From Candidatus Zhuqueibacterota bacterium (GTDB taxonomy: Bacteria > Zhuqueibacterota > QNDG01 > JABMRT01), in the NCBI GenBank assembly GCA_013202295.1, contig JABMRT010000118.1:16109-80108 (forward strand): 64,000 nucleotides of DNA, in the 5' to 3' direction. Under the pieces are notes generated by a model, which was given only the letters and a program-made list of their open reading frames with translations, made no database searches and was not told where the DNA came from. Shown here in pieces: positions 17 to 42,922 of the stretch. A program made the position numbers and the translations under genes. Numbering within the stretch: position 1 is the stretch's first letter; each line of letters begins with the position of its first letter.

Positions 17-421
17 ATGCTCGGATTTACAAAAACGGAAGAACGAGTGGTGGTGATTCTGATCGGAACCTTTCTTTTGGGTTCAACAATCCGATTGGTT
101 CAATCCCGATTTGCACCACTTCCGAAACCGGTTGTCAAGGCGCAGTGGGTTCCATCTCTTGAAACAGGAACCGATCCTTCACCAAAACAAGCCGATGCAC
201 CGAAAAAGAAGGATGCCATAAAAAATCAGCTTGTTGAAATTAACAGCGCCACATATGAAGACTTGATATTAATTCCCGGAATCGGGCCCGTTCTGGCCGA
301 CCGGATTATTCAATATAGAGAGAGCAAAGACGGATTTACATCCATAGAAGAATTGAAAAACATAAAAGGTGTGGGTCAGAAAAAATTTGAAAATTTAAAA
401 TCAGGTTTTATAATTCATTAA
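17..421 (+). CDS. comEA: ComEA-like competence protein with signal/TM N-terminus and C-terminal helix-hairpin-helix DNA-binding domain
   Basis: C-terminal 'INSATYEDLILIPGIGPVLADRIIQYRESKDGFTSIEELKNIKGVGQKKFENLK' is the canonical ComEA tandem HhH motif (GIGP...A..I, GVG). The N-terminus has a hydrophobic helix (VVVILIGTFLLGS). Confidence 0.75.
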   Translation: MLGFTKTEERVVVILIGTFLLGSTIRLVQSRFAPLPKPVVKAQWVPSLETGTDPSPKQADAPKKKDAIKNQLVEINSATYEDLILIPGIGPVLADRIIQYRESKDGFTSIEELKNIKGVGQKKFENLKSGFIIH

Positions 422-470
422 TTGCAATCCGGATCAGACAAACAGTTTGACCGCGATAGGAGGAAAAGAA

Positions 471-2498
471 ATGGCAGATAAGCCACAAGGAAATATTCTT
501 TTTGAAATCATAATTGCAGTGCTGGCAATTATTTTGATTTTCACGATTTTATATCCTCAAAAAGTCTGGAACAAAGAAGATGTCCAGGAATCAATGTGTC
601 GTGCCAGAATGGACGCGATACTCAATCTTGAGCTCCAATACAATAATCAGGTCTGGACTTATTCGGATAGTCTCGAAAAAGTCAAAGATGCAGTGTTTGC
701 CGATCCCAGAGCGGTATCATGGCTTGACAGTCTTGTGATCTGGGACGACCTGGTTACTCGGGATGAATTGAAAACACTTGTGGATGCGAAAACATTCCCA
801 CAGGATCTCCGCACATTGATCCGTGAGAAGCTGTTGAAGGGAGAACCAATACGCAATCTGGGGCAATACGATTCGCTCCAATACAGACTCATCAATACAC
901 TGAAGGCACAGCTCGAAGATACAAGCGGAGCACAAAATGCTCTGCTCGATACCAACATTCAGTGGACAGTGCTTTTTGGCGAACGAAACGTTGAGAACAT
1001 GGTGGATGCCGCTGATCTGTCCAAACCTATCATCCGCCGTGCAATATCAGCTATTCAGAGTGATACACCGGTAGAGGAGACACGTGCATGGAAAACACTT
1101 TACCCTGCGTTTTATAAAAAGCTTGAAGAGATTATTCAAACTGCCGAAACATCGGACATCTGGGAGAAAAAGGATCTGGATGAGTGGAAAGAGATAAAAC
1201 GCGTTGAATGGGAAGCGGATCTGGACACACTCTCTATTGAAGAGCAGGATTCACTATGGGCCCAGAATCAGCGTGAACTGTGGGACAAGGCGAAAGATAT
1301 TGTCTGGAAAAGGGACAGTAATATACTTTGGAAAGCCGAGAAAGAAATCTGGCCGGAAGAAAATGAATCCATGTGGACACGTATTGTTTCCCAGAAATGG
1401 GAATCCGATCGTAAAAAAGAGTGGATTACATCCACAACAGATGATCAGGAGAAACTCCTTTCTTTCTGGCTTTCTGTACAACTAGCAGATACGACTGAAA
1501 TGGATGAAGAGATTGTGGATAGCACGCTCACAACCATTGCTGTGGATACAGCGTTTGAAGCGAAGGCTTTTTTCACCGAAAAACGCGATTCGCTCTGGCG
1601 GGTCGATTTACGTACAATTCGTACTCTGGAATATGAACCATGGCTGAAGAAGAATAATAAATTTGTCACGGAAGTCATTGAAAATATATGGCAAAACGAT
1701 CGCCGGATTACCTGGGAGACAGACGCATATGAAAGATGGCTCGCAGAGAAGAATGAAGACAAATCTGCTCGCTGGGTTGAGCTGAAAGAGGCACTCTGGA
1801 TCACTTCATGGAGTGAGTTGTGGAAGGATGAGGAAATTAAATTGGAGAGAAAGAATTCCGCATTAAGAAAATTGGATCTTTCCGTCAGTTGGGCCGGGCT
1901 TCTTCCCGCTGATCAGATCGAATCGCTTGTCGCCGGACTTGAGCTGCCAAACACGGCTATGATTTGGAAAAAATTAACTGCTAAGACGGATGAAAAGGGA
2001 TCCAAGCTCTATAAGTCGGGTATGGTCGCACTCTTCAGAGACGCTCTCATCGAATTTGTCAATGCATGTCCGGTTGCCAAGGTGCCTTATTTAATTCAAG
2101 TACAGGATACTACGGTTATTAAAAGAGTGAGTATTAAGTGTCCAATCAGTACAACCCACGATCTATCTGTTGGTGAATATAAATACGCCGTAATCGAAGA
2201 CACTGTCGATGTTGAAGAGGATGTGCTCATTGCTGAAACAATGATCCTGGAAGAATCGGATACAACGGCTGTGTTGGTTGAAGAGGAGATAGAAGAACCG
2301 GTCCAGGAGGAAGTGGCTCCTAAAAAATCATCCAAATCCTATGTTGTTTCATTGCGTGTGGACCCAATAACCAGAGATACAACGAAAACCCGGCTCTCTT
2401 TGCCAGCCAACGTGAAACTGTTTGGCGGTGGCACCCTTCGCAATCATGGCAATATTGATGAAGATGGCAAGAAAAGCTGGCAGAAAAAGGGACGCTAA
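471..2498 (+). CDS. Large (~675 aa) protein with type IV pilin-like N-terminus (class III signal peptide) and Trp-rich periodic repeat region
   Basis: ATG at 471 is preceded by AGGAGG (459-464). The N-terminus 'MADKPQG|NILFEIIIAVLAIILIFTILYP' has a short basic leader ending in Gly, Glu at +5 after the Gly, and a ~20-aa hydrophobic helix ending in Pro, as in type IVa pilins and pseudopilins. The central segment has W every 7-11 residues (WEKKDLDEWKEIKRVEWEADLD...LWAQNQRELWDKAKDIVWKRDSNILWKAEKEIWPEENESMWTRIVSQKWESDRKKEW). PilM-like and PilN-like genes lie directly downstream. Confidence 0.5.
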   Translation: MADKPQGNILFEIIIAVLAIILIFTILYPQKVWNKEDVQESMCRARMDAILNLELQYNNQVWTYSDSLEKVKDAVFADPRAVSWLDSLVIWDDLVTRDELKTLVDAKTFPQDLRTLIREKLLKGEPIRNLGQYDSLQYRLINTLKAQLEDTSGAQNALLDTNIQWTVLFGERNVENMVDAADLSKPIIRRAISAIQSDTPVEETRAWKTLYPAFYKKLEEIIQTAETSDIWEKKDLDEWKEIKRVEWEADLDTLSIEEQDSLWAQNQRELWDKAKDIVWKRDSNILWKAEKEIWPEENESMWTRIVSQKWESDRKKEWITSTTDDQEKLLSFWLSVQLADTTEMDEEIVDSTLTTIAVDTAFEAKAFFTEKRDSLWRVDLRTIRTLEYEPWLKKNNKFVTEVIENIWQNDRRITWETDAYERWLAEKNEDKSARWVELKEALWITSWSELWKDEEIKLERKNSALRKLDLSVSWAGLLPADQIESLVAGLELPNTAMIWKKLTAKTDEKGSKLYKSGMVALFRDALIEFVNACPVAKVPYLIQVQDTTVIKRVSIKCPISTTHDLSVGEYKYAVIEDTVDVEEDVLIAETMILEESDTTAVLVEEEIEEPVQEEVAPKKSSKSYVVSLRVDPITRDTTKTRLSLPANVKLFGGGTLRNHGNIDEDGKKSWQKKGR

Positions 2499-2522
2499 TT
2501 CTTTTAAGGCACGGATGAAATT

Positions 2523-3509
2523 TTGAAAAAAGGAAACGATAAAATCTTTCTGTCTTTTTCGATAGAACGAGATGCGATTCATCTTGTGGCTTCGAGCTCC
2601 AAACAGATTATTGGTTTGGATTCAAAAGAATTGGTTCAGCAATTTGATCATAACGGGATTCGCTCTGAAGAGATCTTGTATGAAAATTCGATAGATATTT
2701 TAAAGAAAATGCGTGAACCCTATGGTGACCGCGCCCAAAAGGCGGGGATTGTCATTGGCCAGGAGTTGGTGCTGGTTAAACGCGTGCCCGTGGCTTTGGG
2801 ATTGGATGACGAGCAGGTAAAGGACCAGCTTGATTGGGAAGCCAAGCAACTTTGCATCTCTTCGCCTGAAGAATTCAACATTGTCTCCAAGAGGATGACA
2901 CAAAGAGAGACAGGCGGCAATCAAGTATATTTAATCATACTGGTCCGAAAAAAAATCATTCAATTAATACACCGGCTTATCAAAAAGGCGGATCTAAAGC
3001 TGGTCGATGTTGAGATTGACTTGTTTGCGAATTTCCGCCTCTTTCAGGCGAACGAGAATCCCAAAGAAGGAGAAACATCTGTACTCATTCATTTACAAGA
3101 GGATACTCTCACTTTCACAGTGATCCGCGATAATGAGTATTGTCTATCTCAACGACTGGCTGTCAAGTCTGCAGGAGAGACTGAGGAAGAATTAAGCGAA
3201 AAGGTTGTTCCCTTGATTTTAAAAGAACTGAAACGCCTTGTTTTTGCACATCGTTTTGGAAATGATATTCAAGATCTCAACGGCGTTTATCTTTTATCAG
3301 AAACACCGCTTCATCTGTTTAAACAAGGGCTTGCTTCCAAGCTGCCTATTCCTGTTACACAGATTAATCCTTTTATGCAATTTGCTATCTCGGATAAATT
3401 AATTCATACAAGTAATTTTTCCGAATCACCTGGTAAGTTTGCTTCAGCTCTTGGGCAGACATATAAACATTATCCAGCATTGGTAAAAAAAGCCGCTGCT
3501 GGCAGATGA
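2523..3509 (+). CDS. PilM-like (actin-like ATPase fold) pilus assembly protein, putative; start codon uncertain (TTG at 2523 or GTG near 2587)
   Basis: The ~330 aa size fits PilM. 'SKQIIGLDSKELVQQ' resembles the PilM N-terminal 'vGiDiGsssiKvv.l' strand. The gene sits immediately upstream of an ORF whose N-terminus carries the PilN 'INL' motif. The assignment rests on context and weak motifs only. Confidence 0.4.
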   Translation: MKKGNDKIFLSFSIERDAIHLVASSSKQIIGLDSKELVQQFDHNGIRSEEILYENSIDILKKMREPYGDRAQKAGIVIGQELVLVKRVPVALGLDDEQVKDQLDWEAKQLCISSPEEFNIVSKRMTQRETGGNQVYLIILVRKKIIQLIHRLIKKADLKLVDVEIDLFANFRLFQANENPKEGETSVLIHLQEDTLTFTVIRDNEYCLSQRLAVKSAGETEEELSEKVVPLILKELKRLVFAHRFGNDIQDLNGVYLLSETPLHLFKQGLASKLPIPVTQINPFMQFAISDKLIHTSNFSESPGKFASALGQTYKHYPALVKKAAAGR

Positions 3510-3530
3510 CACACAGGGAGGATATAACCC

Positions 3531-4622
3531 ATGGTGGACATTAATCTGTTTGATGACGACGAATCCGAAGAAAAAGATGCTTTTGATGACGGTTTTGGCG
3601 CCGAATCGCTGGATAATCATGATGACCTGAACGCGGATAATTTAGGTGGCGACTTGAGTCTGGATGATGATTTATCAAGTGATGATGCCGGTTTTGGCGA
3701 GGATTCACTCCTTGACGGCGATGACACGATTCCAGAGTTTGAAGAATCGATTGAAAGCGATGAAATGGATGATTATGCCTTCGAAGACACGGGCAAGAAA
3801 AAATCCATTCCGTGGATCTGGATCATCCTTGGCGTGGTTGTAATCGCTGTGGTTGTCTATCTCTATGTCATTGTTCCCAGTCAGGGCCCAAAACCTGTGA
3901 AAGTGCAGAAATCAAAAAGGCCGGTGTCAGCACAGACTGCTTCAGGAACCAAAATCCAAGCAGATCAAGGCGCACAAAATAAAACCGAACAACCGGGATC
4001 TACTTCAGCAATACCTGTTACATCTGTTGCTGGAAAGACTGGCAATCCAGTGATTGCCGCCCGTGCGGTGTTTGAAGACTTGAGCAAAAAAGGTTCACTG
4101 GGAGTTGTAATCCTGAGCGGAAACCAGTATCTTGTGCAGTATGTTTCCAAAACACCGGGTCAAGGTGATGTCATCGGAAAAAATATTCAGGCCTTGATTG
4201 GTGCATCTTCATATGAGGTATCACCTGAAGATGTACAGGGTTCCGGCGGGCAGGCACAGTATTCCGGTGTCATTTCATGCGTGATGCCAGCGCCGGTTAA
4301 ACAACAGTTGGCTCCGGATCAAAATCCCTATCAGACCATTGATCAATTCAATCAACGGGTCTCTGAGCTGGTTAAACAAAGCGGGCTGGAACTGAAAAGT
4401 ACAGAAAAAATATCCGGCTCAAGAGGCAGTGACGGCAAACAGCCATCCGGTCATATGATTGTTGAGGGAGGGAAAGTTCAGGCGTTGAATTTCCTGAATG
4501 CATTGAATGCTTTGCAGGGAAACTGGAGCCTTTCGAGGCTTCAGTTGAATCCTTTAAATAATATGGATTATTCTGCAGAGAAAGTACGGATTGGGATCTC
4601 CTTTATTGTCCAGATCGGATAA
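3531..4622 (+). CDS. PilN-like bitopic membrane protein with an acidic disordered cytoplasmic N-terminal region (possible PilN/PilO-like fusion)
   Basis: GGAGG RBS upstream. The N-terminus 'MVDINLFDDDE' matches the conserved PilN N-terminal 'M..INLLP' motif that binds PilM. Residues 10-85 are ~40% D/E. A single TM helix (WIWIILGVVVIAVVVYLYVIV) is followed by a ~240-aa periplasmic domain. Confidence 0.4.
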   Translation: MVDINLFDDDESEEKDAFDDGFGAESLDNHDDLNADNLGGDLSLDDDLSSDDAGFGEDSLLDGDDTIPEFEESIESDEMDDYAFEDTGKKKSIPWIWIILGVVVIAVVVYLYVIVPSQGPKPVKVQKSKRPVSAQTASGTKIQADQGAQNKTEQPGSTSAIPVTSVAGKTGNPVIAARAVFEDLSKKGSLGVVILSGNQYLVQYVSKTPGQGDVIGKNIQALIGASSYEVSPEDVQGSGGQAQYSGVISCVMPAPVKQQLAPDQNPYQTIDQFNQRVSELVKQSGLELKSTEKISGSRGSDGKQPSGHMIVEGGKVQALNFLNALNALQGNWSLSRLQLNPLNNMDYSAEKVRIGISFIVQIG

Positions 4623-4666: not shown

Positions 4667-5230
4667 GTGATACGTGTCATTGGGGGTTCCGCTCGCGGGA
4701 GAAGGTTGAAAGGTCCCAAAGGAACGGCCTTTCGTCCCACAACAGGCCGGGTGAAGGAATATATTTTTAATATACTTGGGGAGACGATTCAGGACGCGGT
4801 TGTTTTAGATTTATTCTCTGGTTCAGGCTCGCTGGGCATTGAGGCATTGAGCCGCGGTGCACGGCATGTCACATTTGTTGAGTTGGATGCCAGCCACACA
4901 CACATTTTAGAAGACAATCTCAACACGTGCAGATTCAGAGAACAAGGCCGGATTTACAGGGGGAATGTTTTCACACAAATTGAGCGCATGCATAATTCTT
5001 CAATGCAGTTTGATCTTGTATTGGCAGATCCCCCCTTTAAAGAAAAGTACCATCAGCACATTGTTGAGGCTCTGACAAGGTTCCCAATCTTGAAACATAA
5101 AGGATTGTGTCTTATCGAGCATGAAAAAAATGATCCGGCCGACGAAAGCAGAGAATTAGCGCTTGAGAAATCCAGAGCGTTTGGGCATGTGACCGTATCC
5201 ATGTATGAGCAAATAACCAATATTCTATAA
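4667..5230 (+). CDS. rsmD: 16S rRNA (guanine966-N2)-methyltransferase RsmD
   Basis: SAM-binding motif 'VLDLFSGSGSLGIEALSRGA' and substrate motif 'LVLADPPF'. ~185 aa. Conserved rsmD-coaD gene pair. Confidence 0.85.
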   Translation: MIRVIGGSARGRRLKGPKGTAFRPTTGRVKEYIFNILGETIQDAVVLDLFSGSGSLGIEALSRGARHVTFVELDASHTHILEDNLNTCRFREQGRIYRGNVFTQIERMHNSSMQFDLVLADPPFKEKYHQHIVEALTRFPILKHKGLCLIEHEKNDPADESRELALEKSRAFGHVTVSMYEQITNIL

Positions 5231-5239
5231 TGAGATAAA

Positions 5240-5716
5240 ATGAGAACAGCCATATATCCAGGAACTTTCGATCCGATTACGAATGGACACCTTGATATCG
5301 CAATAAGAGCGTCCGCCTTGTTTGACAAGGTGATTGTAGCGGTTGCAGAAAATCCACAAAAAAAGCCGTTGTTTTCCAAAACAGAAAGACGCGATCTTGT
5401 TTCACAGTCGGTGAAGGATATCGAGAATGTTGAAGTGACCGATTTTGATGGATTGCTTGTGGACTATGCCAAATCTGTGAATGCATGTGCCATCATCCGT
5501 GGATTACGCGCTGTTTCTGATTTTGAATTCGAGTTTCAAATGGCATTGATGAATCGAAAGCTGTGTCCGGAACTTGAAACGGTCTATTTGATGCCCAGTG
5601 AAAAATACACCTATATCAACTCGACTATTGTGAAAGAGATCGCTCGCCTTGGCGGAAAAATTGATTGTTTTCTCCCGGAGGCAGTTGTTCCCTATTTAAA
5701 AGAGAAACTGAAATAG
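5240..5716 (+). CDS. coaD: Phosphopantetheine adenylyltransferase
   Basis: The N-terminus 'AIYPGTFDPITNGHLDI' (T/HxGH nucleotidyltransferase motif) is typical of CoaD. 158 aa. Confidence 0.9.
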   Translation: MRTAIYPGTFDPITNGHLDIAIRASALFDKVIVAVAENPQKKPLFSKTERRDLVSQSVKDIENVEVTDFDGLLVDYAKSVNACAIIRGLRAVSDFEFEFQMALMNRKLCPELETVYLMPSEKYTYINSTIVKEIARLGGKIDCFLPEAVVPYLKEKLK

Positions 5717-5717
5717 A

Positions 5718-6725
5718 ATGACCGAATCGAACAAAACGCTCATATTGATTGAAGACATACGCTTGCAGGCAAAAAAACGACAGGCTCGCATTGTTTTTCC
5801 CGAAGGAGAAGACGAGCGAACCATTCGTGCGACCAACCGTTTGGATGATGAAGAAATCTGTCGCCCCATATTGATGGGCGATCCCGAAAAAATTATTCAA
5901 AAGGCTCAGACTCATAAAATCCCATTCGATGAGAAGTCCGTAGAAATTGTTGATCCGAAACAATCCTCGCAATATGAGACATATTCTCAGCAATATTTCG
6001 AATTAAGAAAGCACAAACAGATTACGGAATCTGATGCGTATAAAAAAATGCTTGATCCTTTATTCTTTGGTGCGATGATGATTCGAAATGGAGACGCAGA
6101 TGGTGGTGTAACCGGAGCGGTGCATGCAACCGGTGACGTATTACGTGCTGGAATTCAATGTATCGGTGTAATTGAAGGACTTTCCTTGGTTTCAAGCTGC
6201 TTTTTAATGCTTGTACCGAATTGGCCGGTTCCTTTGACCTTTGCGGATGCAGGTGTGGTGCCTGATCCCAATGCAGAGCAATTGGCCTGTATCGCCATTG
6301 CAAGTGCGAATACACACAAAAAACTGACGAAACAAGATCCGATTGTCGCAATGCTTTCATTTTCCACGAAGGGAAGTGCACAGCACGAACGGGTGGATAA
6401 AGTATGTGAAGCAGTGGAGATAGCCAAAAAATTGGCGCCAGATTTATTGATTGATGGTGAATTGCAAGGGGACGCAGCCCTTGTTGCTGATATCGGAAAT
6501 CAAAAAGCGCCGGGGAGTCCAGTTGCAGGGAGGGCAAATGTTTTAATCTTTCCTGATTTGGATTCTGCAAATATATGTTATAAATTAACACAGAGGCTGG
6601 CTTGCGCAACCGCGCTCGGCCCGCTCGTGCAAGGGCTTGTAAAGCCATTTATGGATTTATCTCGTGGCTGCAGTGCGGATGATATTGTGGATGTGGCAGC
6701 CATTTGCGCCGTGTTAGGCGCGTAA
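5718..6725 (+). CDS. pta: Phosphate acetyltransferase (short-form Pta)
   Basis: 'RIVFPEGEDERTIRA' and 'SFSTKGSAQHERVDKV' match conserved Pta motifs. ~335 aa, like the Bacillus-type Pta. The start overlaps the coaD stop by 1 nt. Confidence 0.8.
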   Translation: MTESNKTLILIEDIRLQAKKRQARIVFPEGEDERTIRATNRLDDEEICRPILMGDPEKIIQKAQTHKIPFDEKSVEIVDPKQSSQYETYSQQYFELRKHKQITESDAYKKMLDPLFFGAMMIRNGDADGGVTGAVHATGDVLRAGIQCIGVIEGLSLVSSCFLMLVPNWPVPLTFADAGVVPDPNAEQLACIAIASANTHKKLTKQDPIVAMLSFSTKGSAQHERVDKVCEAVEIAKKLAPDLLIDGELQGDAALVADIGNQKAPGSPVAGRANVLIFPDLDSANICYKLTQRLACATALGPLVQGLVKPFMDLSRGCSADDIVDVAAICAVLGA

Positions 6726-8159: not shown

Positions 8160-11100
8160 ATGAGACGGGTCCATAAAAAGAAGAATCAGATGATGCAGAA
8201 TAAAACAAATTTCAGTTTATTGATATTACTCGCGATCGCAAGTCTGCTCCCAAGCACCTCTATTGCGCAGCTCACAGGTGTATCAGTGACCATGGGTGAT
8301 TCGACAGTCAATGCGAGCAGCTGGCATAAGATTGAATTTACGCATACGGACTCTATTCCCAAAGATGGTAAAATTTTAATTGTTTACCCTACAGGTTTTG
8401 ATTTAACTGAAATCTATACTGTCCAATCTGATATGATGGATGGTGCCTGGACAACAATAGTGATCGGCGACACAGTTTTTATCAATCGTAATGGCAATGG
8501 ATCCCAAGAACTACCCGGACGACCTGAAAGATTATATTTGTTAAATGTGGGTAATCACACACAATCCGGCACCAGCTTCACAGTCGATGTGGAAACAAGG
8601 TTTTATAATGACGCAGTAATTGATCAAGGAACCTCAAACGGATTCAGCCTTAATCCCGGGGAAATGGATCGGTTTGCTTTTTCAGGCATTCCGGCCAACG
8701 TTGAAGCGGGAGATCAATTTCCAATAACGATCACTGCACAAGATGAGTATGGGAATGATGCTACAGGTTTTACCTCCGATGCAACTCTTTCAGATAAAAC
8801 AGGTACGTTAAGTATTTCTGGAGGTGGCACTACTACAAGCTATTTCACCGCAGGCGTTTGGAGTGGAAACATTCAAATACTTCAAACAAATCTAAGCAAT
8901 TCAATTACAGCTACCTCGGGGAGCAAGACCAGCACATCCGGCTCTTTCGTGGTCGATCCAACAACCTTGGATTACTTCACATTCGGTGCAATCTCAAGCC
9001 CACAAACTGCGGATACACCGTTTGGTGTTAGCATTACGGCCTATGACAACCTTGGCAATATCAAGACGGATTACACAGGTAATACTGATTTGACCGACCA
9101 AACAGGAAACTTATCAATCACGCTCAACGAATTTGACAACAATACGACCGCTGCATTTTCAGGCGGCATCTGGAGCGGCAATGTTCAAGTGACTCAGACG
9201 TCAACTGATAATTTTATTACGGCTTCCGGTCCTGCGAGTGGCAATTCCGGGCAGTTCAATATCAATCCTGCGTCAGCAAGCACATTTACTTTTTCCAATA
9301 TCGTTGATCAGGAGGTCGGTGAGCCTTTCCTGATTACAATCACAGCACGCGATCTTTATAATAATGTAGCAACCAGTTTTGGATTAACCGCTACATTATC
9401 CGATGTGACCGGCACACTTCAGATCAGGGCCAATGGCAGTGGAACCACAACAAATAGTTTCTCATCCGGTGTGTGGACCGGGAACGTTGATGTCAATCTG
9501 ATTCATACTGCCGATCAGATTTCTGCGGTCAGTGGTGCTGTGACTGGCAGCTCAACTCAATTTCGAGTGGATCCAACCAGTTCAGTGGATCACTTTGATG
9601 TCACAATTGCCTCCATAGGCACTCCGAAAACCGCAGGCGTTCCGTTTTCCGTAACCATAGAAGCAATTGATGAATTTGGGAATACCGCCGATTATTCCGG
9701 CAATGTCACACTCTTTGACGAAACAGGGACCAATTCACCACAACAGGTTGCAATCAGCAATGGAACTTGGACGGGGAATGTTACGATAGAGCAAGTGCGA
9801 TCTAACAACTCTTTGACGGTTGCTGGTGCGGGTGAGGGTGGGGTGTCCGGCAACTTTGATGTTGTGGCGAACACAGTAGCCTCCTTCGGAATTAATCCGA
9901 TCACCAGCCCCCAACGGGCCGGAAGTTTTTCCATAAACATGACTGCGTATGACGTGTATGATAACATTGCCACAAGCTTCAATCAAACGGTGACACTGGA
10001 AGTTCTCGCATCCGCGACTATTGCCATTACGCCAACGACAAGCGGCGCGTTCAGCAATGGTCAGAGAACCCAGACGGTGCAGATTACCCAGGCCGCGCAG
10101 GATCTTCAAATCCGTATTGTGGATGCAGGGAGCCATGAGGGCACTTCCAACCTGTTCAATGTGATTCATCATGCCACACTCGATGAGTTCGTGATTGGTC
10201 CCATCGCGACCCAGGCAGCAGGGCTTCCTTTTACCCTCTCTTTAACTGCGGTAGATCAATACGGAAACACTTATACCAGTTTTGACGGCACAGACAATTG
10301 GGTATATATCAGCCATTCCGGTTCTGGCAGTATCGTTCCGGTCCAAAGTCAAACTTTTGATCAAGGCAAGTGGGTCGGGAATATTACGATCGATGAGGTT
10401 CAGACGGGCGATGTAATTACTGTCACACGCTATAGCGGCTTAGAAAACGGGCAATCTAACGCATTTAACGTGACGCCAGGCGTGGTAAGTTATTTTGAAT
10501 TTGATCCAATACCCGATCCCATTGTAGCGGGCGATACTTTCCAGATCTGGGTGCGCGCCTATGATGCACAGGGCAATCTCGTTACCGGAGCGGAAGGATC
10601 CTTCGTGATCAATCTGATTGACGAAACCGGATCGATTCTTGACGATACGGGCACAATCAACATAAGCCAGGTTTCACTGATTGGTGGAGTGGGTACTGAA
10701 ACAATTCAGATCCGGGAAAGCATTTACAATAACACACTCACTGCATCCGGGCAAGGTAAAAGCGGTATATCCAATGAATTCGATGTGAATCCCGCCGCGG
10801 TGAATCATTTCAATATTGGTGTGATTGGCAGCCCGCAATTCTCTACTCAAAGTTTTGCGATGACCATCACAGCCAAGGATCAGTTTGAGAACACGGTCGA
10901 TTATTATACAGAGTCTGTGTACCTGTCCGATTCAACCGGAACAATCCAGCCCACACAAAGCGGTACTTTTATTAATGGTGTGCGTACTGTTTCCGTTCAG
11001 ATCACAGAAGCGAGAAACGATGTCCGCATTTGGGCGTATCTTGGATCCGGGGAAAAGGGCGAATCCAATCTGTTTAATGTGTTCCCCGGTCCATTGGATC

Positions 11101-14100
11101 ATTTCACATTTAATGAAATTCCGGATCAGATTATCCGACATCCATTCTCTATTACAATTACTGCTTTTGACGTGAATAATAATATCAAGACAAATTTCAA
11201 TGAATCCGTCACTCTTTCAGATGAAACCGGGACGATTACACCTACAGTGAGTCCCAATTTTGTGAATGGTGTGATGACAGGCGGTGTCACACTATATACC
11301 GATACGACGGATAATCGAATCACAGCCACCTATAATAGTGTGTCTAATTCTTCCGAGCTCTTTGACGTGGTGCTCGATCCGGGTATTCAGGTGCTTAATT
11401 TTAAAGCGCTTTGGAAAGACACAACCACACAGATCAGTTCCATAACAACGAATCAAGACAGCCTCTGGTATTTAACCTGCCATGTGCGAAACATGAGTGG
11501 ATCCAACACCCGAATGGATAGTCTGCAATTGTCCGTTACAGTAAACAATCAACAGCGGAATGACTTCACTTATACTCTTCCCACGCAGTTCTGGGGGAAC
11601 GGTACAGAGAACCTGGGCGGCGGCGCATTGGATTCTCTGCTCATTCCGATCACGCATACGGGCAGCAGATCCGGCCCGGCGATTTTTCAGGTGACCGCCT
11701 TTTTGAAAAAACTTGATACGGGCGCTACTTTGTCCAATGATGCAGTTACCAATTTGTTGGTGCAAACCGACGGAGTTCTCTACGTCAATGAGATGCGAAT
11801 GAAGAATCCGGTTGTATCGAAAGCTGAAGTCACAAGGGGGCAAGATCAAGATTGGTCCATCTCCGTAGTGGTCAAAAATCAGGGACAAAGCCACATTCTG
11901 GTGGATTCCTCTACCAATGCCACATTTCTTAATTTCAGTATCGGGACGCCTGCCACCTGGATCATAGCAAGACCGCCCTTATGGAGCGGTGGCGACTGGA
12001 TTCTTGAAGGCGGAGAGACAGATACACTTAAATACATCATTGATGAAACGACGGATTTGAACTCCGGCTCCTGTTCTGTAGATGCTTATATTGAAGGCAC
12101 GGAAATCAATACTGGCAGGACACTGACAGAAAACACACTTGACGGGGGATCGGGTACCGTGCTCATTGAACAACCGGCCGCGCTGAGAATTCAATCCGTA
12201 ACGAACCTTGCACCCAATGCACCCTATGTGAACCGGAGTCAAGCTTTTACAATTCGAGTACAAGTTACTAATCCGGGCGGGGACGCGTCGCTCTCTTCCT
12301 CTTTAGCGATAAATCAACTCCATTCCTCTTTCCCTGCAACGAGTAATGTGGGATTACTTTCAGGAAGCCAATCCCAAACTGTTGATATTGCCGGCACAGC
12401 TGCTGCAGTAGAGGGTCTGGATGACACCTTTACAATTCGAGCCAATGGCACAGCAGAAAATACAAACGCGTCCATTAGCGATCAAAATCCAGTGGATGAT
12501 ACAGCGCAGGCGATTACTCAGATTCCAGCAACACTCGAAATTATTTCCGTGATTCCTTCCACGACCCAATTGCTGGGAGGACAAACAGATCCATGGAAAT
12601 TGAGGGTTGTTTTACGAAACTCCGGTCAGGCTATCATTGATCTGGATCCGCCCAAGGCAGACAGTTTGAGTTTCTGGGTGGAAGGACTCAGACAGGAAGA
12701 TTATAATGTCATTGCTCCAACCGGATTGTCGAAAAGCGGCAATCTTTCATTGTCAGGCGGAATTACTGATACGCTGACTTTTACAGTAAACACAACAGGC
12801 ACCTATGGCGGCACAGTAGGCATTCTTGCTTCAATTAGCGGTAAAGACAGAAATGATTTAAACATTGTCCGGGATACTGATAACACAAGCGTAACCGTGG
12901 AAACAGAAGAAGCTTTCCGCATCATCCAGACACAGATTGATGCGATTAATACGACAGATGCGAAGAATGGATATGTGAATACCGGCCAGGATTTCAATGT
13001 GCTGGTCATTGTAGAAAATGCCTTGGGCAATACAATTCGAAACATCGATATCCGACTAAACTCGGACGGCGATTCACAGATCGATGATACTACTGCTTTT
13101 ATCAGCTCATTGCCTCCGTCTAAGCGGGATTCGGTCTGGTTTGATGTTCAAGCATCCGGCATTGAGAATCTCAACGGTGAACTGTTTACATCATCTATTG
13201 CTTCCGCAAAGCGCGACAATCAAGTCGATGATGCTCCAATCGGAGCCGCACATGATTCCACAGCAACGATGATTATCCAAACCCGTGCCGAGTTGTCTCT
13301 TGAGCTTTCTTTGGATCCGGCTTCGGGTGTTGTGTCCGTCAACCAACCCTTCACAGTGCAGGCTCGATTGATAAAAACCGGGTCGAGCCAATTGAAAAAT
13401 GATGGCCGCGTGAAGGTTGTACCTCCTAGCGGGTATTTGCTCTTCTCGGATTCCGATACCGCATCTATTACACCGGCACAGCCCGTATCGTGGATCATTG
13501 AAGCACCCAGTGACACCTCGACCGATGATGAAATTCGTGTCAAACTGGAAAGCTATCCCGATGATAAGAATACAGATAACAATGCCTATGTGTCCAATAA
13601 TTCAACTTATATATCCATTTCTACAATACGAAGCCGGATGGATGCTGCGGTCACAATTTCGGATCCAGCCGGAGCAGCGGATGGCACGATTTCAAGCGGG
13701 CAGAATTTTACAGTAAAGGTAGCAGCCGGATTGTCTAATGTGACCGGGGCAAGGGCCAAGATCGATTTGCCCAGTGGCTATACCACACGAAACAATGTCA
13801 CACAAGTTCTCAGTCCGGATTCGGCCACATGGCTGGTGACAGCGCCAGCACTATCTCAATCTGAAAATGAGATTGAGGTAATCACATGGGGATATGATGA
13901 TCTCCAGCCCAATATAGAAATAGGAAGAGATACAACGCGACTTCCAATTCAAACTGTATTACGCGCCGATCTATCTCTTTCATTAGAAATCACCAGTCCT
14001 CCGGAAGCGGCCCAATATGGCACCGTCTCTCTGGGCCAGGAATTTACAGTACAATCACGCGTTGTAAATAACGGTGTGGCAACGACAGAAGGTGACATGC

Positions 14101-15146
14101 AAGTCACTCTACTCTCCTTACCGGATGGTTTTACAACCCATGACCCTCTAACTCAAACTTTGATATCCGGCGATGCGGACTGGACCATAAAAGCACCGAA
14201 CCAGATCAATCAGGCCATCGCAAGCATCGAGGCCCGAATTACTCAAATCCCGCAGGATGAAAACACGAATCAACAAGCTCATATTTCAAAAGATTACCAA
14301 TCTGTTTCACTGACTTTAGAAGGGGCTACTCTGGCAGTATCGGCACTGCCTCTACCCGAAGGAGCAAAGCAGGAATTGGTGCCGGGTCAGGAGGATGTGG
14401 TCTTCATGCGACTCCAGCTAAAGAATGACGGGCAGGAGGGATCATACGATATACAGGTTGAGCGTATTCATTTCTATTTAGAAGACAGAAACGGGAATCC
14501 GGTTTCTCCCGCATCTGCACTTTCACGGCTTGAAGTGGTTGATGATCAAAACGCGACCACATATGGCGGAATCACACAGATCCCATCCGCCAATCCCCTA
14601 ACCATTGAACTCAATGGATTGATTGTGACTGTCGAGCAGAAAGCTCAGGATGAAAATCCGACAATACTTATTCGGGGAAATATCTCCGGCTCAGAAACGA
14701 TTCCCTACTTTCTATTAAATCTACCTGGAACTGATGCCATTGAAGCGATTGAGTCCAACACCGGACGAATTGTTTCGGTGACCGATCCTACTGGTGAAGA
14801 CTGGGAGGACATGCGGTCCATGCCGATGAAGATTTTTGATCTGGTTCGCGAGCATCAACTTTGGAACAGCCCCAATCCGTTTGGAGAGTCAGGCCGGGAG
14901 ATCACATCAATCTATTTTTATATGCCAGAACAACAATCGGTTGAGTTCCGCATCTTCACATTGATGGGGAAGTTGGTAAAAACAATTCAAATCGATGAGG
15001 TGGATGTTATTGCAAACCAGATTAATCTCTGGACATGGGATGGTACCAATGACAAAGGCATTAGGGTTCTGAATGGTGTATACCATTTATTTATGCAAAT
15101 GAGTGACGGACAGATTTTAAAACATAAAATCGCTTATGTGAAATGA
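8160..15146 (+). CDS. Giant (2328 aa) cell-surface repeat adhesin with T9SS C-terminal sorting domain; ~95-aa Ig-like tandem repeats N-terminally and CARDB/DUF11-like repeats C-terminally
   Basis: Signal peptide (LLILLAIASLLPSTSIAQ). About 10 repeats of the pattern 'F.F..I.SPQ.AG.PF..TITA.D.YGN....F.....L.D.TGT......F..G.W.GNV.I........ITA.....G.S..F.V.P'. Later repeats look like 'A.LRIQSV.NL......V...Q.FTIRV.V.N.G'. The C-terminal ~90 aa 'NPFGE...ITSIYFYMPEQQSVEFRIFTLMGKLVKTIQID...GVYHLFMQ..DGQILKHKIAYVK' matches the T9SS CTD. Confidence 0.8.
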   Translation: MRRVHKKKNQMMQNKTNFSLLILLAIASLLPSTSIAQLTGVSVTMGDSTVNASSWHKIEFTHTDSIPKDGKILIVYPTGFDLTEIYTVQSDMMDGAWTTIVIGDTVFINRNGNGSQELPGRPERLYLLNVGNHTQSGTSFTVDVETRFYNDAVIDQGTSNGFSLNPGEMDRFAFSGIPANVEAGDQFPITITAQDEYGNDATGFTSDATLSDKTGTLSISGGGTTTSYFTAGVWSGNIQILQTNLSNSITATSGSKTSTSGSFVVDPTTLDYFTFGAISSPQTADTPFGVSITAYDNLGNIKTDYTGNTDLTDQTGNLSITLNEFDNNTTAAFSGGIWSGNVQVTQTSTDNFITASGPASGNSGQFNINPASASTFTFSNIVDQEVGEPFLITITARDLYNNVATSFGLTATLSDVTGTLQIRANGSGTTTNSFSSGVWTGNVDVNLIHTADQISAVSGAVTGSSTQFRVDPTSSVDHFDVTIASIGTPKTAGVPFSVTIEAIDEFGNTADYSGNVTLFDETGTNSPQQVAISNGTWTGNVTIEQVRSNNSLTVAGAGEGGVSGNFDVVANTVASFGINPITSPQRAGSFSINMTAYDVYDNIATSFNQTVTLEVLASATIAITPTTSGAFSNGQRTQTVQITQAAQDLQIRIVDAGSHEGTSNLFNVIHHATLDEFVIGPIATQAAGLPFTLSLTAVDQYGNTYTSFDGTDNWVYISHSGSGSIVPVQSQTFDQGKWVGNITIDEVQTGDVITVTRYSGLENGQSNAFNVTPGVVSYFEFDPIPDPIVAGDTFQIWVRAYDAQGNLVTGAEGSFVINLIDETGSILDDTGTINISQVSLIGGVGTETIQIRESIYNNTLTASGQGKSGISNEFDVNPAAVNHFNIGVIGSPQFSTQSFAMTITAKDQFENTVDYYTESVYLSDSTGTIQPTQSGTFINGVRTVSVQITEARNDVRIWAYLGSGEKGESNLFNVFPGPLDHFTFNEIPDQIIRHPFSITITAFDVNNNIKTNFNESVTLSDETGTITPTVSPNFVNGVMTGGVTLYTDTTDNRITATYNSVSNSSELFDVVLDPGIQVLNFKALWKDTTTQISSITTNQDSLWYLTCHVRNMSGSNTRMDSLQLSVTVNNQQRNDFTYTLPTQFWGNGTENLGGGALDSLLIPITHTGSRSGPAIFQVTAFLKKLDTGATLSNDAVTNLLVQTDGVLYVNEMRMKNPVVSKAEVTRGQDQDWSISVVVKNQGQSHILVDSSTNATFLNFSIGTPATWIIARPPLWSGGDWILEGGETDTLKYIIDETTDLNSGSCSVDAYIEGTEINTGRTLTENTLDGGSGTVLIEQPAALRIQSVTNLAPNAPYVNRSQAFTIRVQVTNPGGDASLSSSLAINQLHSSFPATSNVGLLSGSQSQTVDIAGTAAAVEGLDDTFTIRANGTAENTNASISDQNPVDDTAQAITQIPATLEIISVIPSTTQLLGGQTDPWKLRVVLRNSGQAIIDLDPPKADSLSFWVEGLRQEDYNVIAPTGLSKSGNLSLSGGITDTLTFTVNTTGTYGGTVGILASISGKDRNDLNIVRDTDNTSVTVETEEAFRIIQTQIDAINTTDAKNGYVNTGQDFNVLVIVENALGNTIRNIDIRLNSDGDSQIDDTTAFISSLPPSKRDSVWFDVQASGIENLNGELFTSSIASAKRDNQVDDAPIGAAHDSTATMIIQTRAELSLELSLDPASGVVSVNQPFTVQARLIKTGSSQLKNDGRVKVVPPSGYLLFSDSDTASITPAQPVSWIIEAPSDTSTDDEIRVKLESYPDDKNTDNNAYVSNNSTYISISTIRSRMDAAVTISDPAGAADGTISSGQNFTVKVAAGLSNVTGARAKIDLPSGYTTRNNVTQVLSPDSATWLVTAPALSQSENEIEVITWGYDDLQPNIEIGRDTTRLPIQTVLRADLSLSLEITSPPEAAQYGTVSLGQEFTVQSRVVNNGVATTEGDMQVTLLSLPDGFTTHDPLTQTLISGDADWTIKAPNQINQAIASIEARITQIPQDENTNQQAHISKDYQSVSLTLEGATLAVSALPLPEGAKQELVPGQEDVVFMRLQLKNDGQEGSYDIQVERIHFYLEDRNGNPVSPASALSRLEVVDDQNATTYGGITQIPSANPLTIELNGLIVTVEQKAQDENPTILIRGNISGSETIPYFLLNLPGTDAIEAIESNTGRIVSVTDPTGEDWEDMRSMPMKIFDLVREHQLWNSPNPFGESGREITSIYFYMPEQQSVEFRIFTLMGKLVKTIQIDEVDVIANQINLWTWDGTNDKGIRVLNGVYHLFMQMSDGQILKHKIAYVK
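8655..11355 (+). repeat. In-frame tandem coding repeats (~285 bp / ~95 aa, ~10 copies, diverged) within the giant adhesin gene
   Basis: The motifs 'SPQ.AG.PF..TI.A.D', 'L.D.TGT', 'G.W.GNV.I' and 'F.V.P' recur with ~95-aa periodicity. Confidence 0.6.
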
Positions 15147-17184: not shown

Positions 17185-20100
17185 ATGTTTAAGAAGGTGA
17201 TCAAGGAGCAATGGGAATTTCCTGCAGAAATTGATTATCTCGGCGATATGCGGGATACGGTGATGGAGTTCGGCCGACAATACGGTGTCTCCGAGCAAGT
17301 GATAAATGCGTTCAAACTTGCAATTGATGAAGCCGGTACAAATATCATCCGGCACGCATATCGAGATTGGGATGGCAAAATCACTCTTCGAGTGATCATT
17401 CGCGATAAATCAGTCACAATATCCTTAATCGATCAGGGCCATCATTTTGATCTGAGAAAAGTGCAGGATCCGGATCTGCAGCGATACGTGGATATCGGAA
17501 AAAAGGGTGGCCTGGGGATCTTTATTATTCGCCGTGTGATCGATAAAATTGATTATAGAAAAACGTCAGAGGGCAATGAGCTCCGCCTCACAAAAAACCG
17601 ACGGGGCAATAAAGCTGGCAGTTTGATGAGTGCCGATTTGCCCTTTACCATGAAAACCCGATTCTCTCTGATTGCATCAGCGATTTTAACGCTATTTGTA
17701 TTGGCAGCGATTGTCTGGAATTATTTTGTGCAGGAAGATAAAATCCTTAATGCGAATCTGGCATCCGGACAGAATATGACTCGCTCTCTTGTGCATCAAT
17801 GTGCCGATCCTCTTGCGAAAGGATACCTTTGGGAACTCAGTGCGATTGTTTCTGAAAACCACAGAGAATGGTATCCCAAGATCAGCGAAATCATGGTGCT
17901 TGATACAGCGAATATTGTACAGGGTCTTGTGAATCTGGATTCTTTGATGAGTCAATATGTATTCCCTGTGAACGCCAGGCAAATCCGTAAGGGCATTTAT
18001 ATTATACAAACCTGGTCTGGCAAGACAGTTTATGATATTATTGAACCGGCTGTGACCCAGGTGCAGGGTCGGGAGATTCAGCTCGGATCGATTCATCTTA
18101 TGCTTGACAAAGCGGTAATTGATTCAGAAGTGGTTGATGCGAGGAAGCGCATTATTTTTAACGGGGCAATCATTCTTATTCTTGGCTGCGGCGGTATTTT
18201 CGGTTTGGTATATCTGACTTTGAGCCCCTTTAAAAAGCTTTCTAAATGGGTTCGGGATCTTGGACATGGTGAAGTGCATGATGAAATGGAATTCAATAGA
18301 TCGGATGAGATCGGCGAGATCGCCCAGGCGTTCAATGAAATCACCGAGAAATTCCGCAAATCTCAAGAAAATGTAGCTGAGCAGGAACGGCTGCAAAAAG
18401 AGATGCAAGTCGCCCAGGAAATACAACAAACTCTTCTCCCGGATTCTTTTCCCGATGTCGAGGGGTATGAATTGGCCTCCTATTATGAAGCGGCCAAAGA
18501 GGTGGGCGGCGATTATTTTGATTTTTTTAAGGTTGATCGTGACACACTCGGCATCGCTGTCGCCGATGTGTCGGGTAAAGGTGTTCCCGGATCACTCGTA
18601 ATGACCATGATTCGCACTGCACTGCGCACGGAAGCGCGCGGCAATAAAAACGCTGCGGATGTTCTTTCCAAAGTCAATGATTTTGTGATCAATGATATGA
18701 AACGGGGTATGTTTGTTACTGTTTTCTATATAATCCTTGATTCAAAACGTCGTATTATCAATTATGCCAGTGCCGGACACAATCCCATGATTCTATACAG
18801 GGGACAATCTGAAAAGAGCTATTATTTAAATCCCAGAGGATTTCCCATCGGGATTAATCTTCCGGACAAGGCGCTATTTCGTAAATCCATTGAATCTGAT
18901 ACTTTGCAGCTTAGACCGGATGATGTGCTGATTGCGTATACGGACGGTATCACGGAGGCAATGGATAAGAGCCGGAATCGATTTGGTGATGAGCGATTTC
19001 TCTCTGTATTAAGGCGGAGTGGCAACCTACAAGCCGAGCCGCTGGTAAAACGTATTCAGGAAGAAATTCAGCGTTTTACAGGCGGTTACGCGCAGAGTGA
19101 TGATATTACACTGGTTGCGATTCGTGAAAAACTAGCTGCAGAAGATGTGCTTTTTAATCATCGAAACGAGTTGTTTCGCATGGTAAAAAAAGAAGGCATG
19201 AGCGTTAAAGAAGCCTGTGAAAAAGCAGGAGTTTCGACCTCTACGTATTATAAATATAATAAACTTTATAAGAAAGAGGGTAAAGCCGGATTAAAGGAAC
19301 GTGTTTCCAAGACTGAAATTGAAGAGAAGCATATTGCCATTGAGGACAAGGCGAAAATCTATGATGTGATTAAGCAAACTCCCGAATATGGTCCGAAGCG
19401 CATTCGTGAAGAGTTGAACACAGAAAAGTACGGCTTTCTGCAGGTTGATGAAAACCGCATTTATGATGAGTTGGTCCGCAGTCGGTTAAACACCAAGGAT
19501 CTGCGTATGGCTTTTGTGGAGCGGGGTGGTCGGGGCAAACGGATGAAACCACCAGGAACACCATTTCTCACATTGGATGGCAAGGTAATTATTGAACCGA
19601 CCGTTCACCGCATACCCGTCCCGCCACCGAGACAGACAATTGTACAGGCGCCGGTTGAAGTTGAAAAAGCGGCCGAAGCACCGGATACAGTTTCAGAAAA
19701 CAAAGAATGGAACACGCTTCAGGTTGTTGATATGACCGAACAAAACGACGGTTTTGGTGAACACGAGGGCGTCTCCATAGCCGAGGAAGTCGAGATGGGT
19801 GCTGAAGAAATTGAGGAACAGATTCAGCATGATCTGGTCTCACATGGTGCTGATCAGCAGGCTGAGGTCCAACATGAAGAGGAACGGATCTCTCAAGATC
19901 TATCAGAAATTCCTGAAAGCAAAGAAGAAAACTCCGAAGAGATTTTTTCAGATCTAGATGAGATAGAATCACTCCAAAATCAGGATGCGAAGGATATAGA
20001 AGAACCGGATTTCGATGAATTTATATCTTCAGATGACGGTCTGGCTCATGCCCTTTTGACGGGATCCGACGAGAATTTTGATTTCATGGAAAAAGAATCC

Positions 20101-20781: not shown

Positions 20782-20806
20782 CAATCTTTCAAATTTCCAT
20801 TAACTT
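20778..20806 (+). promoter_or_regulatory. Possible sigma70-like promoter for the STAS gene (-35 TTGACA 20778-20783, 17-nt spacer, -10 TAACTT 20801-20806)
   Basis: Hexamers read directly from the sequence. The -35 overlaps the upstream stop codon. Consensus usage in this lineage is unknown. Confidence 0.25.
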
Positions 20807-20853
20807 GACAAGTAACTCATTTAATTTGAATGGATTTCCGATAGGAGAATAAC

Positions 20854-42358: not shown

Positions 42359-42922
42359 ATGAAAAAGTGGATTGTCGTTCTAGGGATCATGATCCTTGCC
42401 GGTTTGATCGTTTCATGCAGTATCAAACCCCCTGAAGTTCGGGTCACCGGCGAGATGACTGCGCTTGAAAACGAAGTACTGGGAACGTATCGTGAGATTG
42501 AGCAGGACACATGGATGGTGGCTTCCACCCGGTCTTCAGGGACTGGAAAAGGACAGACGCTCTCACCAGAGAAGAAACTTGTGCTTGACGCCAAACGGCG
42601 GCAGAAATTCAATCAGGATGATGTCATGGAAATGAAGACCGCCAAATTGATTGGTGAAAACAATCAGGGATTTCTTGAGGTGGTTGACAATGAGAAGCTT
42701 CAGGTCGATTCCGAAAAAGAGGAGTTTGTGACCATTTTGGTCACGGAAGAGAATGAAGACCGTGAAGTCATTGTGGATCGGGTGATTGAACTGAATGAAA
42801 ACCTGAAGGATGCTGTGCGTGAAAACATACTTGCGATCTTTGCTGAGATGAATCAAAAAAATTCGCCGATTGGCTCCTGGATTCAGGATCATATTGGCAA
42901 ATGGATACTGAAAGCAGAATGA
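42359..42922 (+). CDS. Lipoprotein of unknown function
   Basis: GGAGG RBS. Signal peptide with lipobox 'LIVSC'. A Glu/Lys-rich soluble domain. It overlaps the start of the downstream giant gene by 22 nt. Confidence 0.55.
   Translation: MKKWIVVLGIMILAGLIVSCSIKPPEVRVTGEMTALENEVLGTYREIEQDTWMVASTRSSGTGKGQTLSPEKKLVLDAKRRQKFNQDDVMEMKTAKLIGENNQGFLEVVDNEKLQVDSEKEEFVTILVTEENEDREVIVDRVIELNENLKDAVRENILAIFAEMNQKNSPIGSWIQDHIGKWILKAE

Follow-up and report, generated by a model that had tools for sequence, protein, structure and literature searches.

This report concerns a run of seven genes at the 5' end of a 64-kb window, the whole stretch of contig JABMRT010000118.1 that was analysed, which derives from a bacterium of candidate division KSB1 (Candidatus Zhuqueibacterota). 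All seven genes lie on the + strand and are separated by short gaps. The first one, comEA (positions 17-421), encodes a protein of 134 aa that matches HHH_3 (PF12836) with an E value of 1.5e-19. It is followed by a gene that we name X (471-2498), whose 675-aa product is a divergent type IV pilin-like protein without a Pfam or NCBIfam family; by pilM (2523-3509), which encodes a cytoplasmic actin-like protein of 328 aa and has a TTG start as in the NCBI annotation; and by a gene that we name Y (3531-4622), encoding a bitopic PilN/PilO-like protein of 363 aa that has no Pfam family. The remaining genes, assigned by Pfam, are rsmD (4667-5230), coaD (5240-5716) and pta (5718-6725). These are co-oriented housekeeping genes and conserved synteny partners of the first four, and they are not thought likely to have a functional part in the module formed by comEA, X, pilM and Y.

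A Shine-Dalgarno sequence, AGGAGG (458-463, + strand), is located 7 nt upstream of the ATG at 471. This ATG is preferred over the TTG at 447 as the start of X because orthologues begin with MADKPKGN. The start codon, the AGGAGG in front of it and the length of 675 aa are thus those given in a preliminary description of the window that had been made from its sequence alone. The X product is 100% identical to the NCBI hypothetical protein HQ585_09740 of candidate division KSB1. A terminator scan found no terminator-like site on the + strand between 421 and 6705. A promoter-like sequence (TTGAAA-16 nt-TATAAT, 11 of 12 positions; 387-414, + strand) lies within the 3'-terminal part of comEA and 57 nt ahead of the start codon of X; it may give X-pilM-Y a transcription start of their own. 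We take this site as a lead only; the region as a whole contains no more promoter-like sites than shuffled sequences do, and the consensus used is sigma-70-like and may not be the phylum's own.

The N-terminus of X and its relationship to type IV pilins

X begins with MADKPQG followed by NILFE IIIAVLAIILIFTILYP, and its hydrophobic run ends at Pro29. The region encoding this prepilin-like N-terminus (471-653, + strand) specifies a leader of seven residues (aa 1-7), a putative cleavage site after Gly7, and Glu12, which would occupy position +5 of the mature protein. The leader MADKPQG with the hydrophobic NILFEIIIAVLAIILIFTILYP behind it corresponds to the published definition of a class III signal (PMC10191384). 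The preliminary description had recognized such a signal, and its 7-aa leader ending in Gly, its Glu at +5 and its hydrophobic run up to a Pro were all recovered; the word "basic", which it applied to the leader, is generous for a sequence with one Lys and one Asp. In the AlphaFold2 (AF2) model of X, alpha1 is a continuous helix of 53 residues (aa 9-61) that holds the conserved Cys43.

A word-indexed search returned nine relatives of X, and an exhaustive profile search extended the family to 148 representatives. About 28 of these are full-length (580-690 aa), and most of the others are proteins of 150-300 aa that match both ends of X only. The sources named for the family are exclusively metagenome-assembled genomes (MAGs) labelled KSB1 or unclassified "bacterium". 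The N-terminal match extends over about 90 residues and has the pattern M..K.KG(S/N)(I/L)(I/L)x(E/K)(I/L)LIV...YP..W..E...CR.RM...AE..Y....Y.DSL, and the C-terminal match has the pattern DSL..CP....Y.I...D.....I.CP ... NHG.I..G..SW. Since the ends are shared and most members are short, the middle of the protein must differ greatly in length, being nearly missing in some members and exceeding 500 residues in others. Leaders are mostly of 7-8 aa among 159 intact family N-termini, with Lys or Arg at position -2 in 138 of them. The Gly at -1 is invariant in aligned sets of 28 long, 28 short and 36 mixed sequences; within the long set, Gly7 is therefore invariant, and Glu12 is nearly so.

Several short members of the family gave sub-threshold matches, with E values between 2e-6 and 1e-2, to the N-termini of GspG, ComGE and ComGC. 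Searching PDB sequences with a profile of 28 short members gave Myxococcus xanthus PilA (8tj2) as the top match (E 4.4e-7), followed by Thermus PilA (6xxd; E 4e-4), GspG (E 1e-3) and the Geobacter pilin (geopilin; E 1e-3). These alignments to mature pilins cover about 60 residues, continue past the hydrophobic part into alpha1-C and have negligible bias scores. Their register is exact: the Gly of the family occupies -1, its Glu/Lys column coincides with Glu5 of the pilins, and pilin residues 3-5 (L-I-E) are aligned. A profile of the 28 long members retrieved the same top pilins in the same register, with E values of 0.024 and 0.06. The relationship to pilins that we propose for X can be seen only at the level of family profiles, and for the long subfamily it appears marginal.

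The AF2 model of the 675-aa X has a mean predicted local distance difference test score (pLDDT) of 84.5 and a predicted template modelling score (pTM) of 0.67, and consists of the helix of aa 9-61, an all-helical part (aa 68-531), five strands within aa 541-641 and a disordered acidic loop (aa 568-620). The model of a 177-aa family member (P0158; pLDDT 92.3, pTM 0.83) contains a helix of aa 10-61, two more helices and five strands. In both models the predicted order of secondary structure elements is the one expected of a pilin. The homology of X to pilins is confined to alpha1, and the globular part (CP...CP...NHG...SW) had no counterpart by sequence or by Foldseek.

A helical insertion with regularly spaced Trp residues

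Between alpha1 and a C-terminal beta module, X contains an insertion of about 470 aa (aa 62-531; 654-2063, + strand) that is all-helical in the AF2 model. The insertion is missing or much shorter in positional orthologues, and short members align to the N- and C-terminal modules only. It contains two blocks rich in Trp. Block 1 (aa 226-333; 1146-1469, + strand) has 12 Trp residues and a net charge of -11, and its predicted helices comprise aa 233-252, 256-290 and 299-324. Block 2 (aa 371-475; 1581-1895, + strand) has 10 Trp residues, which fall within aa 376-474, on the same 8-residue grid, with predicted helices of aa 358-394, 396-429 and 431-471. The linker after block 1 has a net charge of -8, and block 2 is neutral.

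Positions 1160-1480 (aa 230-337) encode exactly 12 Trp residues, the number counted in the preliminary description. Their spacing, given there as 7-11 residues, proved more regular and is mostly exactly 8: an interval of 8 residues occurs eight times, and intervals of 7, 16 and 15 residues occur once each. The 8-residue recurrence spans aa 231-318 and aa 391-451. Trp pairs at lag 8 number 12, against a maximum of 7 in 20,000 shuffles of either the whole protein or aa 200-480 alone. No DNA tandem repeat was found underlying this periodicity. Five Trp residues of block 1 (W239, W271, W279, W294 and W310) and five of block 2 (W415, W423, W435, W443 and W451) are invariant among the 28 long homologues. 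As a step of eight residues corresponds to a rotation of 80 degrees on an ideal alpha-helix, the Trp residues would spiral round each helix rather than form one flat ladder. Structure prediction of the Trp-rich segment, which had been suggested as a check, gave long helices with high confidence. This Trp-octad domain is confined to the X family and has no Pfam match.

The C-terminal module of X

The C-terminal beta module (aa 532-675; 2064-2495, + strand) contains two CP motifs (Cys533 and Cys557) and is shared with the family members of 150-300 aa. Its strands in the AF2 model are formed by aa 541-545, 552-556, 559-562, 624-630 and 637-641. It ends in a conserved tail, GGGxIxNHGxIDxDGKKSWxKKGR, with His659 and Trp670. 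The DxDG-like stretch of this tail may resemble the calcium-binding loops of pseudopilins. No other part of the X family is as strongly conserved as this tail (aa 652-675; 2424-2495), GGGTLRNHGNIDEDGKKSWQKKGR. Inserted in the beta module is a loop of 53 aa (aa 568-620; 2172-2330, + strand) that is acidic (net charge -15) and predicted to be disordered (pLDDT below 50). Only the closest relatives share this loop, which corresponds to a gap in the alignment of P0006-P0009.

A separate observation concerns a CCCH pattern composed of Cys43, the Cys residues of both CP motifs and the His of NHG (aa 43, 533, 557 and 659), which is kept in 25 of the 28 long and 27 of the 36 mixed family members. Its conservation suggests a possible metal site, or alternatively a disulfide plus a free Cys, and fits an exported domain.

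ComEA, PilM and Y

ComEA scored 54.1 bits with TIGR00426 (cut-off 53.1) and remained below the cut-off of the full-length model TIGR01259. A hydrophobic membrane anchor (aa ~11-29) is followed by a helix-hairpin-helix DNA-binding domain at the C-terminus, in agreement with its earlier naming as the ComEA encoded upstream of X. The only match to T2SSK in the region, a faint one, fell on this helix-hairpin-helix part, and X was accordingly rejected as a GspK homologue.

The pilM product scored 36.0 bits with PF11104 (gathering score 27; E 4.9e-9), as the earlier assignment had predicted, and its orthologue in L006 scored 52.9 bits; with TIGR01175 the pilM product reached only 34.6 bits of a required 133. 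M. xanthus PilM (3jc8) was the best match among PDB sequences (E 2.5e-7), and the NCBI name is "pilus assembly protein PilM". A homologue search with the PilM profile retrieved module members only, and none from other phyla.

Y starts with the motif MVDINLF (3531-3551, + strand), a putative PilM-binding segment of the type found at PilN N-termini; it resembles the INLLP peptide by which PilN binds PilM. MVDINLF is invariant in three close Y orthologues, and M(V/I)DINL is kept in seven of eight. The motif is followed by a poly-acidic cytoplasmic insertion of 81 aa (aa 8-88; 3552-3794, + strand) with 35 Asp/Glu residues (43%) and a single Lys/Arg, and then by a transmembrane helix (aa ~93-115; 3807-3875, + strand; hydropathy maximum at aa 96-114, mean 3.02). 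The acidic stretch, which had been described as preceding the INL motif, in fact lies behind it and in front of the transmembrane helix. We also observed that this insertion varies in length and occurs only together with a long Trp-rich X (in the window, L002 and L004), being missing where X is short. A linker rich in Pro, Ser, Gln and Lys connects the transmembrane helix to a C-terminal domain of about 190 aa, the periplasmic domain (aa ~176-363; 4056-4619, + strand), of which the last ~90 aa are PilO/GspM-like. A profile of eight Y orthologues matched M. xanthus PilO (3jc8_O) over residues 89-178 with an E value of 3.5e-5, and one orthologue gave a weak match to T2SSM_b (E 0.02) below the gathering score. 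The gene had been called PilN-like. The INL motif supports that name for the N-terminus, and the periplasmic domain is PilO-like; judged by its sequence, the name PilN/PilO hybrid probably suits Y better than PilN. The possibility that Y is an FtsN/RodZ-like division protein acting with PilM as an FtsA was rejected, as no FtsA-family match was obtained and PilM and PilO were matched instead.

X, PilM and Y are therefore homologous to pilins, PilM and PilO, respectively. The best matches of solved structure for three of the four module proteins are PilA, PilM and PilO of M. xanthus, which makes a chance resemblance very unlikely, and ComEA is genuine. The earlier view of the region as a type IV filament-like locus is upheld by these matches.

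Conserved gene order around X

Twelve loci with readable contigs around X family members were compared. X occupies the slot dnaJ-comEA-X-pilM in all 12, with lengths of 152-675 aa. In nine of them the order is (ftsE-ftsX-hrcA-grpE-)dnaJ-comEA-X-pilM-Y-rsmD-coaD, and the X proteins have 171, 177, 180, 253, 307, 584, 585, 589 and 675 aa. The other three contigs belong to a divergent lineage with the order grpE-dnaJ-comEA-X (152-155 aa)-PilM-like, without Y. Downstream of the PilM-like gene these carry genes for a histidine kinase with a PAS domain, two successive response regulators, the first of the PatA_N type, CheW, a 491-aa protein without assignment and a methyl-accepting chemotaxis protein (MCP). 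The MCP is Tll0287-like/HAMP, and the gene order is PilG/H/I/J-like. In these contigs comEA, X, the pilM-like gene and the chemosensory genes together occupy positions 9379-16468 of L008, 10831-18050 of L013 and 10907-18041 of L014.

The shared slot indicates that the 675-aa X is the positional orthologue of pilin-sized proteins (152-307 aa) and not an extra tip pilin. The preliminary description had proposed a tip or minor pilin of atypical size, a proposal that this comparison does not support as it stood. On the evidence of sequence and gene order, X is taken to be the only pilin-like gene of the module and to have gained its length from an insertion at the site of the alpha-beta-loop of pilins.

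Other genes of the window

Further downstream, positions 8160-15146 encode a protein of 2328 aa in which Ig-like segments are repeated many times and whose C-terminal domain is of the FlgD_ig type (26 bits, slightly below the gathering score); a giant gene for a protein of 2000-2700 aa is found at the same downstream position in L002, L004, L009 and L010. A 1198-aa protein with HATPase_c_2, HAMP, SpoIIE phosphatase, HTH and TPR domains (17185-21507) is followed by a STAS-domain protein, and the two look like a partner-switching regulatory pair. Positions 42901-51114 encode a 2737-aa protein in which PD40 beta-propeller repeats and numerous TPR are combined with a caspase-like CHAT domain at the C-terminus. 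Three neighbouring genes (52464-53858, 54469-57132 and 57918-59456) encode proteins with C-terminal sorting domains of the type IX secretion system or FlgD_ig domains, namely a GH18 chitinase, an 887-aa protein without another recognized domain and a GH113-like glycosidase. These domains indicate the presence of type IX secretion cargo in this organism.

Discussion

The explanation that we favour, with a probability of about 0.55 for the whole, is that the locus constitutes a module derived from type IV filaments that is vertically inherited and characteristic of candidate phylum KSB1. It would consist of ComEA, the divergent pilin-like X, PilM and a single PilN/PilO-like protein Y, and X would form or cap a pilus or pseudopilus for DNA uptake. 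PilM, at the cytoplasmic face, would clamp the N-terminal MVDINLF peptide of Y. Y would cross the inner membrane once, and its PilO-like periplasmic domain would build an alignment sub-complex. The hydrophobic alpha1-N of X, 20 residues long, would anchor the protein in the inner membrane, with the N-terminus inside and the C-terminus outside. If genes elsewhere supply the peptidase, the extension ATPase and the platform protein, X would be cut after Gly7 and would polymerise into, or cap, a short pilus or pseudopilus. This structure may take up DNA jointly with ComEA, the DNA receptor in the periplasm. The adjacency of ComEA is the one feature that points to a competence-pilus function. The acidic Trp-striped insertion of about 470 aa and the acidic loop of 53 aa would decorate the outside of any filament, and in one lineage the module may be under chemosensory control of the PilG/J type.

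A considerable body of observations speaks against this proposal, and part of it concerns the machinery. No domains of a pilus ATPase, a platform protein, a prepilin peptidase or a secretin were found in any large open reading frame of the window, as had already been remarked for secretin and ATPase, and no machinery genes were found within 10 kb on either side of the module in the 12 related loci. Of the set that makes up a complete competence pilus or type IVa pilus (T4aP), namely PilB/ComGA, PilC/ComGB, PilD/ComC, PilQ and ComEC, no component was found in the window or in these flanking regions. A KSB1 survey includes a KEGG table (PMC9012183, Table S7). In its rows for pilD (K02654) and gspE (K02454), both genes are scored in 0 of 6 clade I genomes and in 1 of 12 clade III genomes; the same rows give pilD in 9 of 11 and gspE in 11 of 11 genomes of clade II, and pilD in 10 of 15 and gspE in 9 of 15 genomes of clade IV. 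KSB1 MAGs are incomplete, and the zeros in these rows are to be read accordingly. The clade III genome GCA_003854995.1 carries the module, yet these rows tabulate it without pilD and gspE (PMC9012183); its X protein (P0180) begins with ...KAKGSILLE. The gene content of the window (monomeric isocitrate dehydrogenase, aconitase, GH18, KamA and Pta) argues against an assignment to KSB1 clade IV, and for nothing finer. Neither pili nor competence are mentioned in the text of two KSB1 genome papers.

Other objections arise from the proteins themselves. X had no match at E<=1 in Pfam and NCBIfam, N_methyl (PF07963) and models of the TIGR02532 type included, so that the N_methyl support which the preliminary description had anticipated was not obtained; N_methyl was not matched by ten short relatives of X either. 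Likewise, PF05137 (PilN), the profile expected for Y, was unmatched at E<=1 in Y and in four orthologues. Foldseek searches of the PDB returned only long-helix noise for the 675-aa model (best E 0.05, TM scores below 0.11), and for the model of the 177-aa orthologue they returned nothing below E 1.6 and no pilin. Among the 159 N-termini the residue at +1 is Ser in 110 and Asn in 31, rather than Phe or Met. The residue at +5 is always charged, being Lys in 77 and Glu in 76, so that the Glu of the window X belongs to a family-wide split that is atypical of pilins; the positional orthologues in L006 and L007, for example, carry GSIILK, with Lys at this position. The salt bridge between Glu5 and the N-terminal amine is considered central to subunit docking and is incompatible with Lys, and Glu5 is normally missing only from tip-capping subunits (PMC10191384). 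The Gly itself is missing from a few very distant members (P0109, P0115, P0123 and P0130). Because X is acidic overall, it is unlikely to bind DNA itself. Finally, the module is part of a housekeeping operon (ftsEX-hrcA-grpE-dnaJ ... rsmD-coaD), an uncommon setting for pilus genes.

The strongest competing explanation, which we nevertheless judge unlikely, is that X is a pilin-derived but non-polymerising and possibly uncleaved bitopic protein of the inner membrane. With PilM and Y it would form a static housekeeping complex independent of a pilus ATPase and peptidase; this complex could serve as a periplasmic scaffold or could have a DNA or envelope function linked to ComEA. Such a complex would account for the Lys at +5 in half of the family, for the housekeeping operon in which the module lies, and for the genomes tabulated without pilD, GCA_003854995.1 and most tabulated genomes of clades I and III among them. 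It is also favoured by the single-copy presence of the module inside that operon and its conservation across the phylum, by the members that lack the Gly altogether, by the failure of N_methyl to match X or the ten short relatives, and by an insertion of 0 to more than 500 aa that does not sit easily with one conserved mode of filament packing. On the other hand, the Gly at -1 is invariant in all three aligned sets, and the short basic leader has been kept well beyond the needs of a simple membrane anchor. Even P0180, from a genome listed as pilD-negative, retains KGSILLE, and the incompleteness of the MAGs weakens the argument from missing genes. To our knowledge, moreover, PilM, PilN and PilO proteins are otherwise restricted to filament machines.

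A related view, in which X, PilM and one PilN/O protein are a stripped-down descendant of a type IV pilus that acts as a housekeeping complex of the envelope or of DNA uptake without a dedicated extension ATPase or peptidase, we put forward only as a speculation with the odds well against it. The residue at +5 could then flip between Glu and Lys, and the periplasmic part would be free to gain a Trp-octad fold of about 500 residues.

We consider it somewhat less probable again that a type IV pilus at the cell surface, used for twitching or attachment, has X as its major or adhesive subunit; the hypervariable insertion would then be a surface-exposed adhesin or antigenic domain, and the adjacency of comEA an inherited accident. 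The PilG/PilH/PilI/PilJ-like chemosensory cluster that adjoins the module in the three contigs of the divergent lineage would suit such a pilus, as would the extreme variation of length at the alpha-beta-loop, the usual site of variation in pilins, and the identity of the best pilin match, the T4aP major pilin PilA of M. xanthus. Modular pilins with grafted adhesive domains do exist (PMC8179133; PMC10191384). Against this stands the presence of comEA directly upstream of X in all 12 loci, with genes for a secretin, PilT or minor pilins not found nearby, and the Trp positions of the long subfamily are invariant rather than diversifying. We know of no precedent for a major pilin subunit of 75 kDa.

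That the resemblance to pilins is a compositional artefact and X an unrelated signal-anchored periplasmic protein beside pilM is highly improbable, since, despite the curated pilin models that remain unmatched, the lack of a structural match by Foldseek and the E value of only 0.024 for the long-subfamily profile, the alignments of about 60 residues reach beyond the hydrophobic part in exact register, four different pilin types are the top matches, and the neighbouring genes match PilM and PilO independently.

Comparison with known systems

Among described proteins, ComZ of Thermus thermophilus (PMC6561018) resembles X in being an unusually large pilin-like protein that is linked to DNA uptake and has an extra domain inserted in the pilin core. 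ComZ is a tip DNA receptor that acts with PilA2 in a complete type IV pilus machine, whereas X is the only pilin-like gene of its module. The insertion of ComZ is reportedly a beta-solenoid located within the beta-sheet. That of X, in contrast, is all-helical, acidic and Trp-periodic, and follows directly after alpha1. No sequence similarity between X and ComZ was seen.

PilB and PilC of Streptococcus sanguinis (PMC8179133; PMC10191384) also combine a pilin module with a large domain and are several times the normal size. In these modular pilins a recognizable adhesive domain (vWA or lectin) is grafted at the C-terminus, and the N-terminus matches N_methyl. In X the extra domain is internal, has no Pfam match and differs in length between orthologues, some lacking it and others having more than 500 aa, and N_methyl is unmatched. 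The minor (pseudo)pilins GspK and PilK, which cap the tip, lack Glu5 (PMC10191384), as does about half of the X family. Unlike them, however, the X of the window has Glu5, the members without Glu have Lys and not a neutral residue, and no partners of the GspH/I/J type are encoded nearby. GspK-type subunits, too, owe part of their size to a helical insertion.

The succession of a PilM_2 protein and a bitopic protein with INL-type and PilO-like features is shared with PilM-PilN-PilO(-PilP) of T4aP and GspL-GspM of type II secretion systems. Compared with the alignment sub-complex of T4aP, one PilN/O-like gene replaces pilN, pilO and pilP, and there is no pilQ. Y differs from PilN by the 81-aa poly-acidic insertion between the putative PilM-binding motif and the transmembrane helix, and the divergent lineage has no Y. 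The likeness of the X family to its best match of solved structure, M. xanthus PilA (8tj2), extends over alpha1 and ends there. In summary, the parts of the module are of known kinds (ComEA, a pilin, PilM and PilN/O). It is distinct from described systems in its pilin family missed by curated models, its single PilN/O gene, its fixed housekeeping location, the 50:50 occurrence of Glu and Lys at +5, the insertion of 0 to ~500 aa and the Trp-octad helical domain.

Because signatures such as N_methyl miss the X family throughout the phylum, type IV filaments may be undercounted in uncultured lineages of the Fibrobacterota-Chlorobiota-Bacteroidota (FCB) superphylum. The family also provides a natural experiment in pilin tolerance, in which a single slot holds proteins of ~150 to 675 aa, the insertion is always at the alpha-beta-loop and position +5 is divided evenly between Glu and Lys. 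The Trp-every-8 helical domain, which has no recognizable relative, could be a new binding or packing module. If it is true that the module works without PilD and PilB, this would be a new use of a pilin, PilM and PilN/O.

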